From Escherichia coli (GTDB taxonomy: Bacteria > Pseudomonadota > Gammaproteobacteria > Enterobacterales > Enterobacteriaceae), in the NCBI RefSeq assembly GCF_011045215.1, contig NZ_CP049201.1: DNA of 64,000 bases; one strand, 5' to 3'. A program made the translations under genes and the position numbers. Shown here piece after piece: positions 3 through 48,752 of this stretch. Position 1 is the first letter of the stretch, and each line of letters begins with the position of its first letter. The notes under the pieces were generated by a model, which was given only the letters and a program-made list of their open reading frames with translations, had not been told where the DNA came from and did not search any database.

Positions 3-539
3 GTGATGAACGACACCGTACTGGACGGTCGCGATGTCACTAAAACCAACACCACCGACGTAGCGACCTTCAAGTCTGTTAACTACGGTCCTCTGGGTTA
101 CATTCACAACGGTAAGATTGACTACCAACGTACCCCGGCACGTAAGCACACCAGCGACACACCGTTCGATGTCTCTAAGCTGAATGAACTGCCGAAAGTC
201 GGCATTGTTTATAACTACGCTAACGCATCCGATCTTCCGGCTAAAGCACTGGTAGATGCGGGCTATGATGGCATCGTGAGCGCTGGTGTGGGTAACGGCA
301 ACCTGTATAAATCCGTGTTTGACACGCTGGCGACCGCCGCGAAAAACGGTACTGCAGTCGTGCGTTCTTCCCGCGTACCGACGGGCGCTACCACTCAGGA
401 TGCCGAAGTGGATGATGCGAAATACGGCTTCGTCGCCTCTGGCACGCTGAACCCGCAAAAAGCGCGCGTTCTGCTGCAACTGGCTCTGACGCAAACCAAA
501 GATCCGCAGCAGATCCAGCAGATCTTCAATCAGTACTAA
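3..539 (+). CDS. ansB: L-asparaginase II, C-terminal portion (5' end outside window)
   Basis: ORF-track translation matches the periplasmic asparaginase C-terminus (..GTLNPQKARVLLQLALTQTKDPQQIQQIFNQY); runs off the window start. Confidence 0.88.
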   Translation: MMNDTVLDGRDVTKTNTTDVATFKSVNYGPLGYIHNGKIDYQRTPARKHTSDTPFDVSKLNELPKVGIVYNYANASDLPAKALVDAGYDGIVSAGVGNGNLYKSVFDTLATAAKNGTAVVRSSRVPTGATTQDAEVDDAKYGFVASGTLNPQKARVLLQLALTQTKDPQQIQQIFNQY

Positions 540-546
540 TCACCTC

Positions 547-575
547 GCCCCGGTATCGTGCCGGGGCTTATTCAC
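547..575 (+). terminator. Putative rho-independent terminator of ansB
   Basis: GC hairpin gccccgg-tatcgtg-ccggggc followed by T-rich stretch immediately after ansB stop. Confidence 0.5.
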
Positions 576-655
576 TTCAGACTCACGTCCATTGCCAATT
601 GTGATTATGCTAATGATAATCACTGGAGTAAATTATTCCGCGTGAGGGTGTTCCG

Positions 656-1663
656 GTGAAAAAGCAATGGATTGTAGGCACTGCGCTGTTTGTGTTGATG
701 TCTGGTAATGTCTGGGCAGGTGGCGAACCGCCAACTGAAAATATCTTAAAAGATCAATTCAAAAAGCAGTATCACGGCATTCTCAAGCTTGATGCCATCA
801 CCTTAAAAAACCTTGATGCGAAAGGTAATCAGGCCACCTGGTCAGCAGAAGGCGATGTTTCTTCCAGCGATGATCTCTATACCTGGGTCGGTCAGTTGGC
901 AGATTACGAACTGCTGGAACAGACCTGGACGAAAGATAAACCGGTAAAATTCTCGGCGATGTTAACCAGTAAAGGAACGCCCGCGTCTGGCTGGACGGTG
1001 AACTTTTACTCTTTTCAGGCGGCAGCCAGCGATCGTGGTCGGGTGGTCGACGATATCAAAACGAATAATAAATACCTGATCGTGAATAGCGAAGATTTCA
1101 ATTATCGTTTTAGTCAGCTTGAGTCAGCGTTGAATACCCAGAAGAACTCGATTCCTGCGCTGGAGAAGGAAGTGAAAGAGCTTGATAAGAAAATGGCAGC
1201 GGCGCAGAAAGCAGCGGATGCATATTGGGGAAAAGATGCAAACGGCAAGCAAATGACCCGCGAAGACGCCTTTAAAAAAATTCACCAACAGCGTGATGAG
1301 TTTAATAAACAGAACGATAGCGAGGCGTTCGCGGTTAAATATGACAAAGAGGTTTATCAACCGGCGATTGCGGCATGTCATAAACAGAGTGAAGAGTGTT
1401 ATGAAGTGCCGATTCAGCAGAAACGAGATTTCGATATCAACGAACAACGGCGACAGACTTTTCTGCAATCACAAAAACTTAGCCGTAAATTGCAGGATGA
1501 CTGGGTAACGCTCGAAAAAGGGCAATATCCGTTAACGATGAAAGTTTCAGAAATAAACAGTAAAAAAGTCGCGATTTTGATGAAAATTGACGATATCAAC
1601 CAGGCTAATGAACGCTGGAAAAAAGATACCGAACAACTGCGGCGCAATGGGGTGATTAAGTAA
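656..1663 (+). CDS. yggM: Secreted protein of unknown function, YggM-like (GTG start, signal peptide)
   Basis: 335-aa ORF with N-terminal signal peptide (MKKQWIVGTALFVLMSGNVWAG); length and N-terminus match my recollection of YggM; adjacent to ansB. Confidence 0.75.
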   Translation: MKKQWIVGTALFVLMSGNVWAGGEPPTENILKDQFKKQYHGILKLDAITLKNLDAKGNQATWSAEGDVSSSDDLYTWVGQLADYELLEQTWTKDKPVKFSAMLTSKGTPASGWTVNFYSFQAAASDRGRVVDDIKTNNKYLIVNSEDFNYRFSQLESALNTQKNSIPALEKEVKELDKKMAAAQKAADAYWGKDANGKQMTREDAFKKIHQQRDEFNKQNDSEAFAVKYDKEVYQPAIAACHKQSEECYEVPIQQKRDFDINEQRRQTFLQSQKLSRKLQDDWVTLEKGQYPLTMKVSEINSKKVAILMKIDDINQANERWKKDTEQLRRNGVIK

Positions 1664-1678
1664 CTCATGTTAAGTGCC

Positions 1679-1720
1679 TTTGCCGGATAATATAAAAAGT
1701 TATCCGGCAAATTATTTTTC
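1679..1720 (+). terminator. Putative terminator after yggM
   Basis: Hairpin tgccggataa-N10-ttatccggca followed by aattattttt. Confidence 0.5.
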
Positions 1721-3020
1721 ACATTAGCCCTAGTAGCTGTGGAATGAACAAGGATATTTGCGGAATGTAAGTGATCATCATCAACGCTACTAGCAATGCA
1801 GCATAAAATGGCAGCAATGGTTTGATTAAATGTTGAATCTTCACACCCGAGATAGAACAACCAACAAATAACGCACTACCCACCGGCGGTGTTAACAGCC
1901 CAATACAAAGGTTGGCCACCATCATAATACCGAAATGTACAGGGTCCATTCCCAGCTCTTGTGCAATCGGCAAGAAGATCGGTGTAAAGATTAGTACAGC
2001 CGGTGTCATGTCCATAAAGATGCCGACAATTAATAAGACGATATTAATCAGCAGCAATATGATCAGTGGGTTATCAGAAATCCTCATCAATGCGTCGCTG
2101 ATCATATAAGGAATATCAGCATTGGTCATTGCCCAGGACATGCCCACGGAAAAACCGATCAACAGTAATACAATCGAAGTGGTAACAACCGATTCCAGAA
2201 TCAGTTTGGGTAAATCGCGCCATTTCACTTCCCGGTAAATCAGCACCGAGAGAATAAATGTGTAGACAACGGCAATTGCTGACGCTTCAGTTGCGGTAAA
2301 AATGCCGCCCAGAATGCCGCCCATCACAATGAACACCAGAAGCAAACTTGGTAGGGCATCCAGAAACGCTTTACAGGCCTGAGCAAAGGTTGCTCTATCT
2401 GAAAGTGGGTAACCACGGCGTTTAGCAATAATGGCGCAGACAACCATTACCGCGAGCCCCATTAAGATCCCTGGCAAATATCCGGCCATAAATAGCGATG
2501 CTACGGAAACGCCGCCAGCGGTCAGGGAAAACACAATTAACACGTTTGAGGGCGGTATCAGTAATCCAGTAATACAGGATGAGACGTTTACAGCGGTAGA
2601 AAATGCCGGATCATAACCTTCTTTGGTCTGAATGGGATTAAGTGTGCCACCAACGGCAGCAGCTGCCGCAACGGCTGAACCAGAAATGGAACCAAACATC
2701 ATATTCGCCAGGACGTTCACATGACCAAGCGAACCAGGAACGCGGCCAACCATTACCTGGGCGAGGTTAATCAAACGTATCGCAATACCGCCGCTGTTCA
2801 TCAGCGTTCCGGCAAAGATGAAAAAGGGGATTGCCAACAGGGCAAAGTTATCCAGTCCATTAGCCAGTCGTTGCGAAACAGTGATTGCCGCGATATCCCA
2901 GGGAAACATCAAAAGCAATGAAGCTACAGTGGCAATACCGATTGAGAACGAAATGGGCACACCAATAAAGACCAGCACAAAAAAACAGCCAAACAGTGTA
3001 ATCGCGATATAACTATCCAT
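1719..3020 (-). CDS. TRAP transporter large permease subunit (DctM family)
   Basis: 433-aa highly hydrophobic multi-TM protein; tightly coupled to the DctQ-like and DctP-like genes upstream on the same strand; family assignment from sequence character and operon context, no HMM run. Confidence 0.8.
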   Translation of the reverse strand: MDSYIAITLFGCFFVLVFIGVPISFSIGIATVASLLLMFPWDIAAITVSQRLANGLDNFALLAIPFFIFAGTLMNSGGIAIRLINLAQVMVGRVPGSLGHVNVLANMMFGSISGSAVAAAAAVGGTLNPIQTKEGYDPAFSTAVNVSSCITGLLIPPSNVLIVFSLTAGGVSVASLFMAGYLPGILMGLAVMVVCAIIAKRRGYPLSDRATFAQACKAFLDALPSLLLVFIVMGGILGGIFTATEASAIAVVYTFILSVLIYREVKWRDLPKLILESVVTTSIVLLLIGFSVGMSWAMTNADIPYMISDALMRISDNPLIILLLINIVLLIVGIFMDMTPAVLIFTPIFLPIAQELGMDPVHFGIMMVANLCIGLLTPPVGSALFVGCSISGVKIQHLIKPLLPFYAALLVALMMITYIPQISLFIPQLLGLM

Positions 3021-3532
3021 TAACTGGCCTCCTGCTCAGGTTGTTTCAGTTGTTGAATGCTTTGGTTAATAAAACACAAGGCATAAAACATCATCACCAC
3101 TCCACTTAATGGCAGAATGATATATACGTATCCCATCGGTATTTGCATAGCGGCAGATACCTGAGATGTTGCCAGTGTTTTATCAATTAACTTCAGGCCA
3201 CCAGTCACAATGACCGAACCGGCAAAACCTAAAATGAGAACGTTAATGACTATACTAAGAAGTAATTGCTTGCGTTTATTCAAGGCGAGAGCAAATAAAT
3301 CAATAGAGAGATGTCGCTGCGCGCCGACGGTATATGCAGCACCTAATAATCCTACCCAGATCATCAAAAAGCGTGCCAGCTCATCGGTTAATGTACTTGG
3401 CTGGTTAAGTACGTAGCGGCTAAATACTTGCCAGACTACGCATACAACCAGAGCAAGCATGACGGCGACAGAAAACGCGGCAATGACGCGGTCTACCGCA
3501 AGTTTCAGGCGGTTAAATATCATTGTAAGCAT
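3020..3532 (-). CDS. TRAP transporter small permease subunit (DctQ family)
   Basis: 170-aa 4-TM-like protein between SBP and large permease; start/stop overlap with the DctM-like gene. Confidence 0.75.
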   Translation of the reverse strand: MLTMIFNRLKLAVDRVIAAFSVAVMLALVVCVVWQVFSRYVLNQPSTLTDELARFLMIWVGLLGAAYTVGAQRHLSIDLFALALNKRKQLLLSIVINVLILGFAGSVIVTGGLKLIDKTLATSQVSAAMQIPMGYVYIILPLSGVVMMFYALCFINQSIQQLKQPEQEAS

Positions 3533-9772: not shown

Positions 9773-10335
9773 CAGGCGTGTCCTGCCACACCAGGCATGG
9801 TGAGAATATCCACACCAATCAGTTTTGCCGCCTCGCGCCAGCGGTCGGCAATTGGCGTTTTGAACAGAATATTCAGATCTGCCGGGGCGGTTAGCCACGC
9901 GTTATCGAGAATTTCTTGTTCCAGTTGACCTTTCTCCCAGGAGGCATAACCCAGAGCCACCAATACGTCAGACGGTTGTTTATCGGTGCCGAGCGTTTCC
10001 AGCACATCGCGGGAAGTGGTCATTACCGTGTTGTCTGAAATGCGAATGCTGGAAGCAAAATTAGAGGGCGGAGTATGCAAAATAAACCCGCGATCTTCAG
10101 CCAGTGGGCCGCCGAGCATAACCGGTTTATCCAGACGGATTGATTCATCACGCGGCTCCGGCGTGATCTTCAGCTTTTCCAGAATCCCTTCAATTTTGAG
10201 ATTTTCCAGCGGCTTGTTGACGATGATCCCCATTGCACCATTGGTATTATGTTCGCAAATGTAGACCACGGAACGACGGAAAATCGGATCCTGGAGAGCA
10301 GGCATGGCAATAAGAAAGTGATGCTGTAAATTCAT
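9772..10335 (-). CDS. yqgE: UPF0301 family protein YqgE
   Basis: Start at [13 protein letters not shown] (187 aa); stop overlaps ruvX start. Confidence 0.85.
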
Positions 10336-40244: not shown

Positions 40245-41141
40245 ATGGACATTTTTATTTCGAAAAAGATGCGCAATTTCATTTTATTAGCGCAAACCAA
40301 TAATATTGCCCGGGCGGCAGAAAAAATCCATATGACGGCTTCGCCATTTGGTAAAAGCATTGCCGCGCTGGAAGAACAAATTGGCTATACGCTATTTACC
40401 CGCAAAGATAATAATATCAGCCTCAATAAAGCCGGACAGGAACTGTGTCAAAAACTGTTCCCGGTTTATCAACGGCTTTCTGCGATTGATAATGAAATCC
40501 ATAACTCAGGGCGTCGTTCACGAGAAATTGTGATTGGCATAGATAATACTTATCCGACAATTATTTTCGATCAGTTGATTAGTCTCGGAGATAAGTATGA
40601 AGGCGTGACCGCCCAGCCAGTTGAGTTCAGCGAAAACGGCGTTATCGATAATCTTTTTGACCGCCAGTTAGATTTTATTATCTCCCCACAGCATGTATCT
40701 GCACGAGTTCAGGAACTGGAAAACCTGACTATCAGTGAACTACCACCGCTGCGATTAGGCTTTCTCGTTTCTCGCCGTTATGAAGAGCGTCAAGAGCAAG
40801 AGCTGCTTCAGGAGCTGCCCTGGCTACAAATGCGCTTTCAGAACCGGGCCAACTTCGAAGCAATGATTGATGCGAATATGCGACCTTGTGGGATCAATCC
40901 AACCATTATTTATCGTCCCTACAGTTTTATGGCCAAAATCAGCGCCGTGGAGCGCGGACATTTTCTGACGGTGATCCCGCATTTTGCCTGGCGACTGGTG
41001 AATCCGGCAACGCTGAAATATTTTGATGCACCGCACAGGCCGATGTATATGCAGGAATATCTTTATTCAATCAGAAATCATCGTTATACCGCCACGATGC
41101 TTCAGCATATTGCTGAAGATCGTGACGGGACAAACCATTAA
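40245..41141 (+). CDS. ygfI: LysR-family transcriptional regulator
   Basis: HTH region ILLAQTNNIARAAEKIHMTASPFGKSIAALEEQIGYTLF; start chosen at MDIFISKK (298 aa). Confidence 0.75.
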   Translation: MDIFISKKMRNFILLAQTNNIARAAEKIHMTASPFGKSIAALEEQIGYTLFTRKDNNISLNKAGQELCQKLFPVYQRLSAIDNEIHNSGRRSREIVIGIDNTYPTIIFDQLISLGDKYEGVTAQPVEFSENGVIDNLFDRQLDFIISPQHVSARVQELENLTISELPPLRLGFLVSRRYEERQEQELLQELPWLQMRFQNRANFEAMIDANMRPCGINPTIIYRPYSFMAKISAVERGHFLTVIPHFAWRLVNPATLKYFDAPHRPMYMQEYLYSIRNHRYTATMLQHIAEDRDGTNH

Positions 41142-46771: not shown

Positions 46772-47665
46772 TTAATCCTGACGAAGGACTTTGTGACCAT
46801 AATCGAGTAACGCATCAGTGACTTTACGCATCATGCGGCTTTCAGGTGCAAAGCGGTGCCAGTAAAGCATTCGGCGTTGAAATAGCCCAGGCGTTAAGTC
46901 AATCAGTTCACCGCTGGCCAGTTCTTTCTCGATTTGCAGGTGCGGGATCATACAGCAGGTGGTGCCCTGGCGAGCAAGTTGCACGAATGCTTCTGAAGAA
47001 TTAACGATATGGCAGGGTACGCTGCCAGGAGGCAGATCGAAGTTTTGCTGCAAAAAGGCCTGGTGCATATCGTCAAGATGGTCAAACGCGACCACTGGCG
47101 CTTTCAATAATGCCGAACGCGTTACGCCGTTAGGGAAATATTTTTCGGCAAAGGGTTTTGAGCTGACGAACAGATAGTCGAGCGCACCAAGTTTATCGAC
47201 AAGACAACTCGGCAGCGCCTGATGTTGAATACTCACCGCGCCGACCACTTCGCCGCGGCGCAGACGTTCCTGAGTGCGGGTTTCATCTTCTACCTGCAAG
47301 TTGAGGCGGATAGGCGAATCAGCCAACACAGGAGCCAGTGCAGGAAGCAACCACGTCGCCAGACTGTCGGCGTTGACCGCCAGTGAAAGCAGCAGCGGAG
47401 TCGAACCGGTTTGTTCATCGCCCAGCCACTCTTCTTCCAGCAACTCCACCTGGCGCAGCAGTGCCAGCAGTTTTTGCCCTTGTTCCGTCGGGCGCGGCGG
47501 TACGGTACGCACCAACAGCGGCTGCCCGAACATATTTTCCAGTTGCTTAATGCGCTGTGAGACGGCTGATTGTGTAATGCACAGCTTTTGTGCCGCGCGC
47601 TCAAATCCTCGTTCACGTATCACCGCATCCAGTGCCTGTAATGTTCTGTAGTCCGGGCGTTTCAT
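46772..47665 (-). CDS. argP: LysR-family regulator ArgP (IciA)
   Basis: Start at [43 protein letters not shown] (297 aa). Confidence 0.9.
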
Positions 47666-47806
47666 TGCTGTTGTCTGCTCCTGGTAAATGCTTTTTCCTG
47701 CACTATGACACAATTTTGTGTCAGGTTGCATATACCGAAGCCGTCGGCGGGTAACATTTGTATTCGTGGTTAAACGCGCAGCTTAAAAGATCAGGGATTT
47801 GCGCTA

Positions 47807-48037
47807 ATGCATTTCGCTCAGCGAGTTCGCGCCCTGGTTGTGTTGAATGGCGTGGCGTTATTGCCTCAATTTGCCTGTAAACAGGGGCTTGCGAACGGTG
47901 AACTGGTGCGCCTGTTTGCACCGTGGAGCGGCATACCCAGATTGTTGCATGCCTTATTTGCGGGGCGAAAGGGGATGCCTGCCATTGCGCGATATTTTAT
48001 GGATGAGTTAACCACGCGGCTTGCCAACGGGGTCTGA
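47807..48037 (+). pseudogene. yqfE: LysR-family regulator C-terminal remnant (yqfE-like)
   Basis: 76-aa ORF resembling only the C-terminal effector domain of a LysR regulator (..GELVRLFAPWSG..ARYFMDEL); no HTH-bearing N-terminus. Confidence 0.45.
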
Positions 48038-48092
48038 ATCGCTTTTTTTGTATATAATGCGTGTGAAATTTCATACCACAGGCGAAACGATC

Positions 48093-48752
48093 ATGACGCA
48101 GGATGAATTGAAAAAAGCAGTAGGATGGGCGGCACTTCAGTATGTTCAGCCCGGCACCATTGTTGGTGTAGGTACAGGTTCCACCGCCGCACACTTTATT
48201 GACGCGCTCGGTACAATGAAAGGCCAGATTGAAGGGGCCGTTTCCAGTTCAGATGCTTCCACTGAAAAACTGAAAAGCCTCGGCATTCACGTTTTTGATC
48301 TCAACGAAGTCGACAGCCTTGGCATCTACGTTGATGGCGCAGATGAAATCAACGGCCACATGCAAATGATCAAAGGCGGCGGCGCGGCGCTGACCCGTGA
48401 AAAAATCATTGCTTCGGTTGCAGAAAAATTTATCTGTATTGCAGACGCTTCCAAGCAGGTTGATATTCTGGGTAAATTCCCGCTGCCAGTAGAAGTTATC
48501 CCGATGGCACGTAGTGCAGTGGCGCGCCAGCTGGTGAAACTGGGCGGTCGTCCGGAATACCGTCAGGGCGTGGTGACCGATAATGGCAACGTGATCCTCG
48601 ACGTCCACGGCATGGAAATCCTTGACCCGATAGCGATGGAAAACGCCATAAATGCGATTCCTGGCGTGGTGACTGTTGGCTTGTTTGCTAACCGTGGCGC
48701 GGACGTTGCGCTGATTGGCACACCTGACGGTGTCAAAACCATTGTGAAATGA
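48093..48752 (+). CDS. rpiA: Ribose-5-phosphate isomerase A
   Basis: Start at [39 protein letters not shown] (219 aa). Confidence 0.95.

Follow-up and report, generated by a model that had tools for sequence, protein, structure and literature searches.

What is the short ORF that separates argP from rpiA in the Escherichia coli window analysed here (a stretch of 64,000 nucleotides), and from what did it arise? In the ORF list it spans 47807..48037 (+) with 76 codons and a stop, and the closest in-frame stop codon on its 5' side is at 47771..47773. A sequence-only reading of the window had placed a 76-aa ORF between argP and rpiA, a position borne out by the ORF list and by neighbours confirmed with Pfam. 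With the remnant, the argP-rpiA spacer is 427 bp long. The ORF and its neighbours are:

46772..47665 (-), argP (iciA), an intact LysR-type regulator gene (Pfam HTH_1 and LysR_substrate; RefSeq annotation)
47807..48037 (+), the ORF, yqfE (b2915), 231 bp, a chimeric deletion-junction ORF
48093..48752 (+), rpiA, ribose-5-phosphate isomerase A (Pfam Rib_5-P_isom_A, E=6e-61; RefSeq annotation)

We consider it very probable that the ORF is the dead gene remnant yqfE, an ordinary deletion leftover of a LysR regulator cassette. In the RefSeq record of K-12 MG1655 (NC_000913.3), a 231-bp feature labelled pseudogene yqfE (b2915) lies at 3,059,381..3,059,611 between rpiA (b2914) and argP (b2916), and the finding is thus already known. 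The K-12 and window copies share the locus, the 231-bp ORF and the junctions, with six substitutions over the 427-bp argP-rpiA spacer. When 551 bp around the ORF were compared with the 5,426 complete E. coli genomes, 5,425 of them matched with an identity of 95-100% (100% in strain 88-3493). Automatic annotation of this same DNA was nevertheless inconsistent between strains, with PGAP labels that vary from hypothetical protein to 'LysR substrate-binding domain-containing protein', 'type 2 periplasmic-binding domain-containing protein' or none. Our literature search on yqfE / b2915 returned no study of the locus and nothing on its expression, and the locus has been lost from a genome-reduced strain (PMC10652928). 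For biology at large the case carries little weight, being textbook gene decay in a place where the reference E. coli genome already says pseudogene. Its modest value is for annotation: the pseudogene can be traced to a regulator, the probable controller of an operon for redox or quinone-type detoxification that a few percent of strains have kept intact, the ORF owes its start to an accident of a deletion junction, and the locus could serve as a small worked example of the parallel decay of an accessory operon across Escherichia.

Descent of the reading frame

Profile searches matched Pfam LysR_substrate to residues 15-72 of the ORF at profile positions 151-208 of 209 (E=1.4e-5), with a score of 25 bits that falls under the 28-bit gathering score. 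NCBIfam PRK14997 also matched the ORF (E=7e-6), and residues 14-72 matched solved LysR effector domains in the PDB (E~1e-5). By themselves, these profile matches would make a weak case for LysR resemblance. Comparison with intact regulators encoded at the same locus in other strains gave 58 of 63 identical residues between positions 14-76 of the ORF and the C-terminus of the MSB1_4I regulator, and 61 of 63 for the regulators of JNE12-007 and 88COLEC. The remnant nucleotides are 93-98% identical to the 3' end of these intact LTTR genes, and codons 14-76 correspond to residues 236-298 of the intact 298-aa regulator. On this comparison of sequences, we regard the LysR descent of residues 14-76 as certain. 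The LysR-derived part is:

47845..48037 (+), 3' remnant of a LysR-family gene, from the third base of codon 13 to the stop after codon 76

The ATG and codons 1-13 of the ORF (MHFAQRVRALVVL) are not LysR-derived but antisense of the 3' end of an azoreductase gene, which is why every profile match starts at residue 14 or 15. The sequence-only reading, which likened the ORF to the extreme C-terminus of a LysR effector domain, therefore holds for residues 14-76 and not for the 13 codons before them.

That the ORF lacks an HTH-bearing N-terminus, as the same reading had claimed, was confirmed: Pfam gave no match to HTH_1 (PF00126) in the ORF, and a permissive tblastn over 47600..48100 and over the whole window found residues 1-228 of the intact regulator in no frame near the ORF. 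Only residues ~229-298 were recovered at the locus, so that the tblastn with full-length LysR proteins proposed to find frameshifted upstream fragments yielded none. A complete effector domain (PF03466, ~200 aa) was likewise absent from the ORF, the matched profile positions being only 151-208 of 209. With no HTH, no linker helix, approximately 30% of the effector domain and no native promoter, the ORF cannot act as a LysR regulator; the target operon is also gone from the window locus, and we infer that the remnant is non-functional. The ORF is thus a member of the LysR family by descent but not by function, for want of the HTH and of a complete effector domain.

The four-gene cassette and the deletion junctions

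In a minority of E. coli strains, argP and rpiA are 3.4-3.5 kb apart, compared with 427 bp here, and enclose a cassette of four genes. Its order from argP is a ferric-reductase-like gene, a DUF1471 gene and an azoreductase gene (all on the minus strand), followed by the divergent LysR regulator gene and then rpiA. The cassette encodes:

argP strand, 'ferredoxin reductase family protein', 441 aa (Pfam Ferric_reduct transmembrane component, FAD_binding_8/6 and NAD_binding_1)
argP strand, DUF1471 / YdgH-BhsA-McbA-like protein, 86 aa
argP strand, FMN-dependent NADH-azoreductase, 209 aa (Pfam Flavodoxin_2)
divergent from the other three, LysR-family regulator, 298 aa (HTH_1 at residues 4-63; LysR_substrate at residues 88-293, profile positions 2-207, 114 bits)

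All four CDS are annotated as intact in E. coli MSB1_4I, JNE12-007, 33F4 and 88COLEC. Cassette DNA was found in 248 of the 5,426 complete E. coli genomes, with at least 80% of it present in 233, and the intact cassettes form three haplotype classes of ~100%, 98% and 95% identity. The gene order scpA-argP-cassette-rpiA-serA is also found in E. whittamii, Escherichia sp. E1V33 and Escherichia sp. MOD1-EC7003, and a Pseudocitrobacter MAG carries the cassette between argP and rpiA without the azoreductase gene. A syntenic intact LysR orthologue is present in 233-248 E. coli genomes, E. whittamii, E1V33 and Pseudocitrobacter, and is frameshifted in MOD1-EC7003. Since a divergent layout is the usual LTTR arrangement, the regulator most likely controlled the azoreductase-DUF1471-ferric-reductase operon. 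This intact regulator (WP_000568124.1 / WP_000568123.1), found with its divergent operon in approximately 4% of E. coli, in E. whittamii and in the other Escherichia lineages examined, shares with the ORF the last 63 codons (58-61 of 63) and the place beside rpiA; missing from the window are its codons 1-~234, which encode the HTH, the linker helix and most of the effector domain, together with its promoter region and the whole target operon.

Cassette coordinates are given on the locus of E. coli strain MSB1_4I (L001). Aligned with it by blastn, the window fell into separate blocks, which define two junctions:

47400..47718 against L001 567..885, 99%, argP and its leader
47784..47844 against L001 2593..2654, 89%, inside the 3' end of the azoreductase gene
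47845..48056 against L001 4001..4211, 93% (E=4e-88), last 63 codons and stop of the LysR gene
48053..48300 against L001 4331..4578, 100%, rpiA

Between argP and the LysR remnant, the spacer therefore contains:

47719..47783, a 65-bp filler replacing ~1.7 kb (L001 ~886..2592)
47766..47844 (-), 3' remnant of a FMN-dependent NADH-azoreductase paralogue, ~26 codons (blastn, tblastn)
47844..47845, junction 2, left by the loss of 1,346 bp (L001 2655..4000), between two adjacent blastn segments

The azoreductase remnant was recovered by tblastn, which placed residues 182-207 of the intact protein on 47843..47766 (77% identity, E=2e-8), and its minus-strand translation was compared with the intact azoreductase C-terminus TQPGRELAEQNALAQTPDLITQVFNHYL*. 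At junction 2, the 1,346-bp deletion took 542 nt from the 5' end of the azoreductase gene (codons 1-~181) and 704 nt from that of the LysR gene (codons 1-~234), along with the 100 bp that separated these divergent genes. The native LysR start codon and promoter went with L001 2655..4000, and from the standard LTTR layout the lost 100-bp region presumably held both promoters and the operator of the regulator. Because these genes diverged, their 3' ends came to lie back to back after the deletion, and an ATG that happens to occur at 47807, antisense to the azoreductase tail, shares its frame with what is left of the LysR gene. The ORF is thus a junction chimera that came into being with the deletion. 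Microhomology at the flanks of junction 2 is short and imperfect (GGTTGGG vs CTTGGTGG), and the junction is identical in all eight remnant alleles examined. On the opposite strand, a 66-aa ORF at 47721..47921 (-) runs through the azoreductase tail and then through the antisense of the LysR remnant; its equivalent is annotated by PGAP as a hypothetical protein in strain 100117 (L004 1452..1652). This minus-strand ORF is another junction artefact.

The other junction, near 47718/47719, is where the filler replaced the ~1.7 kb that carried the ferric-reductase-like and DUF1471 genes. A search for the source of the 65 bp with blastn-short and Smith-Waterman alignment against six intact cassettes, on both strands, gave no score above the shuffled mean. 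One alignment of the filler, to the sequence that follows directly on the azoreductase remnant, was suggestive by its position and scored at chance level, and we did not rely on it. In its right part, the filler probably preserves the last ~9 azoreductase codons in a strongly diverged form. The azoreductase remnant itself is only 89-93% identical to every intact allele.

The direction of change can be read from the short locus, which holds truncated ends of two cassette genes and thus points to an ancestral cassette and not to an insertion. Other Escherichia lineages and Pseudocitrobacter also have the cassette in this position, which leads to the same conclusion, and both junctions are common to the eight aligned remnant alleles, which indicates that the remnant arose once. 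We therefore propose that the ancestral Escherichia chromosome would have carried the four-gene cassette between argP and rpiA, with the LysR regulator transcribed towards rpiA and facing a divergent operon for the azoreductase paralogue, the DUF1471 protein and a membrane ferric-reductase-like FAD/NAD flavoprotein. In the lineage of ~95% of present E. coli, a 1.35-kb deletion would have removed the shared promoter region with the 5' parts of both genes, and a second event would have put the 65-bp filler in place of the ferric-reductase and DUF1471 genes. What is left would be a stretch of 63 LysR codons joined to 26 azoreductase codons read in antisense, which supplied a chance ATG, and this DNA would persist, drifting, as a spacer between the argP and rpiA promoters. 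Of the two origins offered by the sequence-only reading, a decayed paralogue or a rearrangement remnant, the latter is supported by the cassette deletion junctions, whereas a paralogue of argP is at odds with the marginal similarity reported below.

Decay of the cassette is also seen elsewhere in the genus. The ferric-reductase gene has an internal deletion in E. whittamii and frameshifts in Escherichia sp. E1V33, while in MOD1-EC7003 a single deletion cuts into both the ferric-reductase and the DUF1471 gene, in addition to the LysR frameshift. Many of the 248 cassette-bearing E. coli genomes have IS1 or IS5 insertions or partial deletions. Loss of the cassette by many independent routes suggests that selection on the operon as a whole has weakened throughout the genus. 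In strain PK8261, the cassette has undergone an IS1-mediated rearrangement.

Alleles, flanking promoters and competing explanations

We counted alleles over the 5,426 complete E. coli genomes, the class with the 45-bp deletion overlapping both classes of ORF start:

window-type ORF start region, uninterrupted: 4,446 genomes (~82%)
A47807T (ATG to TTG) with C47819T (CAG to TAG, a stop at codon 5): 751 genomes (~14%), O157:H7 included
in-frame loss of 45 bp (15 LysR codons) between GCCT repeats: ~2,070 genomes (~38%)

The reading frame of the ORF is not maintained across strains. Aligning eight remnant alleles gave the following numbers of variable sites:

argP leader: 0 of 53
filler: 8 of 65, the most polymorphic segment
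azoreductase remnant: 5 of 61
LysR remnant: 11 of 193, of which 4 form one private cluster
rpiA leader: 0 of 55

The K-12 LysR remnant and rpiA leader (248 nt) are 100% identical to the intact allele of 88COLEC, which speaks against plain drift. Polarised by the intact alleles, the changes amount to ~1 derived on the K-12 lineage and four clustered on the window lineage. Unlike K-12 yqfE, the window allele has four private substitutions (47942, 47943, 47948 and 47953) that result in P46L and Y48H. These changes, CC to TT, T to C and T to C within the 12 nt of 47942..47953, are private with respect to K-12 and all intact alleles, and the cluster looks like one multi-nucleotide event and not four independent mutations. 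The scant decay of the LysR tail could be explained equally by recent recombination with intact alleles or by a young deletion. Recombination from the rpiA side may have homogenised the LysR tail, the small azoreductase island being unable to recombine.

On both sides, the remnant adjoins the leader of a neighbouring gene:

47666..47718 (-), argP leader and proximal promoter region, 98-100% identical to L001 833..885/888
48038..48092 (+), rpiA leader and promoter region, a putative assignment made from the sequence

The argP leader (47666..47718) is common to remnant and intact-cassette haplotypes, and TGTCATAGT at 47710..47702 (-) is a candidate extended -10 of argP. Upstream of rpiA, a TATAAT at 48053..48058 lies 34 nt before the rpiA ATG and 15 bp past the ORF stop, so that any -35, UP or other upstream element of rpiA would fall inside the LysR remnant. 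A promoter and terminator consensus scan of 47550..48200 returned no site and no sigma-70 -35/-10 pair, and Rfam had no match at E<=1 over 47400..48300. In some strains, both cassette-bearing and remnant-bearing, an ERIC/IRU repeat of ~120 bp stands directly 5' of the rpiA TATAAT (L001 4212..4330, L004 ~1640..1762), with a core that matches the ERIC1R/ERIC2 primer sequences. The insertion point corresponds to 48052/48053, the repeat is found neither in the window nor in K-12, and its insertion replaces all sequence 5' of the rpiA -10 box. Two earlier studies touch on the argP side: the yqfE-argP intergenic region (47666..47806) scored 0.64 in the InvenireSRNA machine-learning screen as a possible CsrB/C-like CsrA-binding RNA (PMC8144298), and argP is reported to show no PhoB binding or regulation, against an older claim for the iciA promoter (PMC10294691).

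Could the ORF nonetheless make a protein? The chimeric 76-aa product might be expressed with a small-protein function of its own, for example by interfering with LysR-type regulators through the C-terminal part of the effector domain, a reading that we find very unlikely. Most strains, K-12 and that of the window among them, have an intact ORF (4,446 genomes with the window-type start region), the K-12 product is unchanged over 63 residues relative to intact alleles, a purine-rich AGGGA 9 nt before the ATG could be a weak Shine-Dalgarno sequence, and PGAP calls a CDS in many genomes. As the LysR part is little decayed, the start region is kept in ~82% of genomes and AGGGA lies upstream, translation of a small protein could occur. 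Against a function stand the codon-5 stop of the 751 genomes that include O157:H7, the ~2,070 genomes lacking 15 internal codons, the two private non-conservative changes of the window allele, a deleted native promoter with no promoter consensus upstream, and the lack of any literature found on yqfE/b2915 expression. Moreover, 63 residues represent less than one third of the two-lobed LTTR effector domain and are unlikely to fold alone. A related scenario, in which the junction would have made a new chimeric gene (13 de novo and 63 LysR codons) that is translated in K-12-like strains and kept unchanged for a LysR-modulating or other small-protein role, seems to us highly improbable.

Any role left to the remnant would be one in cis: it might be kept as DNA that provides upstream elements of the rpiA promoter or that holds the divergent argP and rpiA promoters apart, as a spacer or insulator. 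We judge this cis role unlikely, even though the TATAAT 15 bp past the ORF stop puts any -35 or UP element inside the remnant and the LysR remnant is less polymorphic (11/193 bp) than the filler and azoreductase remnant (13/126 bp). ERIC separates the TATAAT from the remnant in some strains in which rpiA is still intact, which argues that the remnant is dispensable for rpiA expression; the 45-bp deletion within the remnant is common, and the sigma-70 consensus pair was not found. Such a role is in any case compatible with the pseudogene explanation and is not an alternative to it. It is extremely improbable, by contrast, that the short locus is ancestral and that a minority of strains acquired the 3.4-kb cassette as a horizontally transferred insertion, in which case the ORF would be no remnant at all. 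The restriction of the cassette to 4-5% of E. coli genomes and its three haplotype classes would fit a transfer, but an insertion cannot yield truncated 3' ends of two cassette genes in the correct relative orientation, and three further Escherichia lineages and Pseudocitrobacter have the cassette at this very site. Finally, the ORF adjoins argP and both are of the LysR family, as would be expected of a decayed tandem duplicate of argP, an origin that we find barely credible: the ancestral regulator was paired with its own divergent operon, and NCBIfam puts it near PRK14997/YafC/AaeR and not near ArgP/LysG.

Relatives of the ancestral regulator

Although ArgP (IciA) and the ancestral regulator are both of the LysR family and encoded by adjacent genes, their BLASTP match is marginal, covering just 36 residues with E=0.004, and indicates no close kinship. 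Among NCBIfam models, the ancestor matched those of PRK14997, YafC and AaeR best (E 1e-48 to 1e-36, with 1e-48 for PRK14997), and those of ArgP/LysG at E 1e-14 to 1e-16. Its scores are far under the equivalog cut-offs (166 vs 380, 150 vs 470 and 126 vs 425 bits), which makes it an uncharacterised LTTR. The solved structures closest to it are 3szp/3t1b and 3hhg. The ancestor, with HTH_1 and a complete LysR_substrate domain, aligns over its full length with these and with the PRK14997, YafC and AaeR proteins; the window ORF keeps only its tail. By these comparisons, the ancestor lies nearest to YafC/AaeR/AphB-like LysR regulators. Elsewhere in the window, tblastn gave a weak match of the ferric-reductase-like protein (residues 88-136, 31%, E=0.001) at 9814..9960 (-), which could reflect either chance or distant paralogy to a transmembrane ferric-reductase-like protein. 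Another weak tblastn match, of residues 10-82 (HTH region) of the intact LysR protein at 40278..40487 (+) with E=3e-5, indicates a putative further LysR-family gene ~7 kb away.
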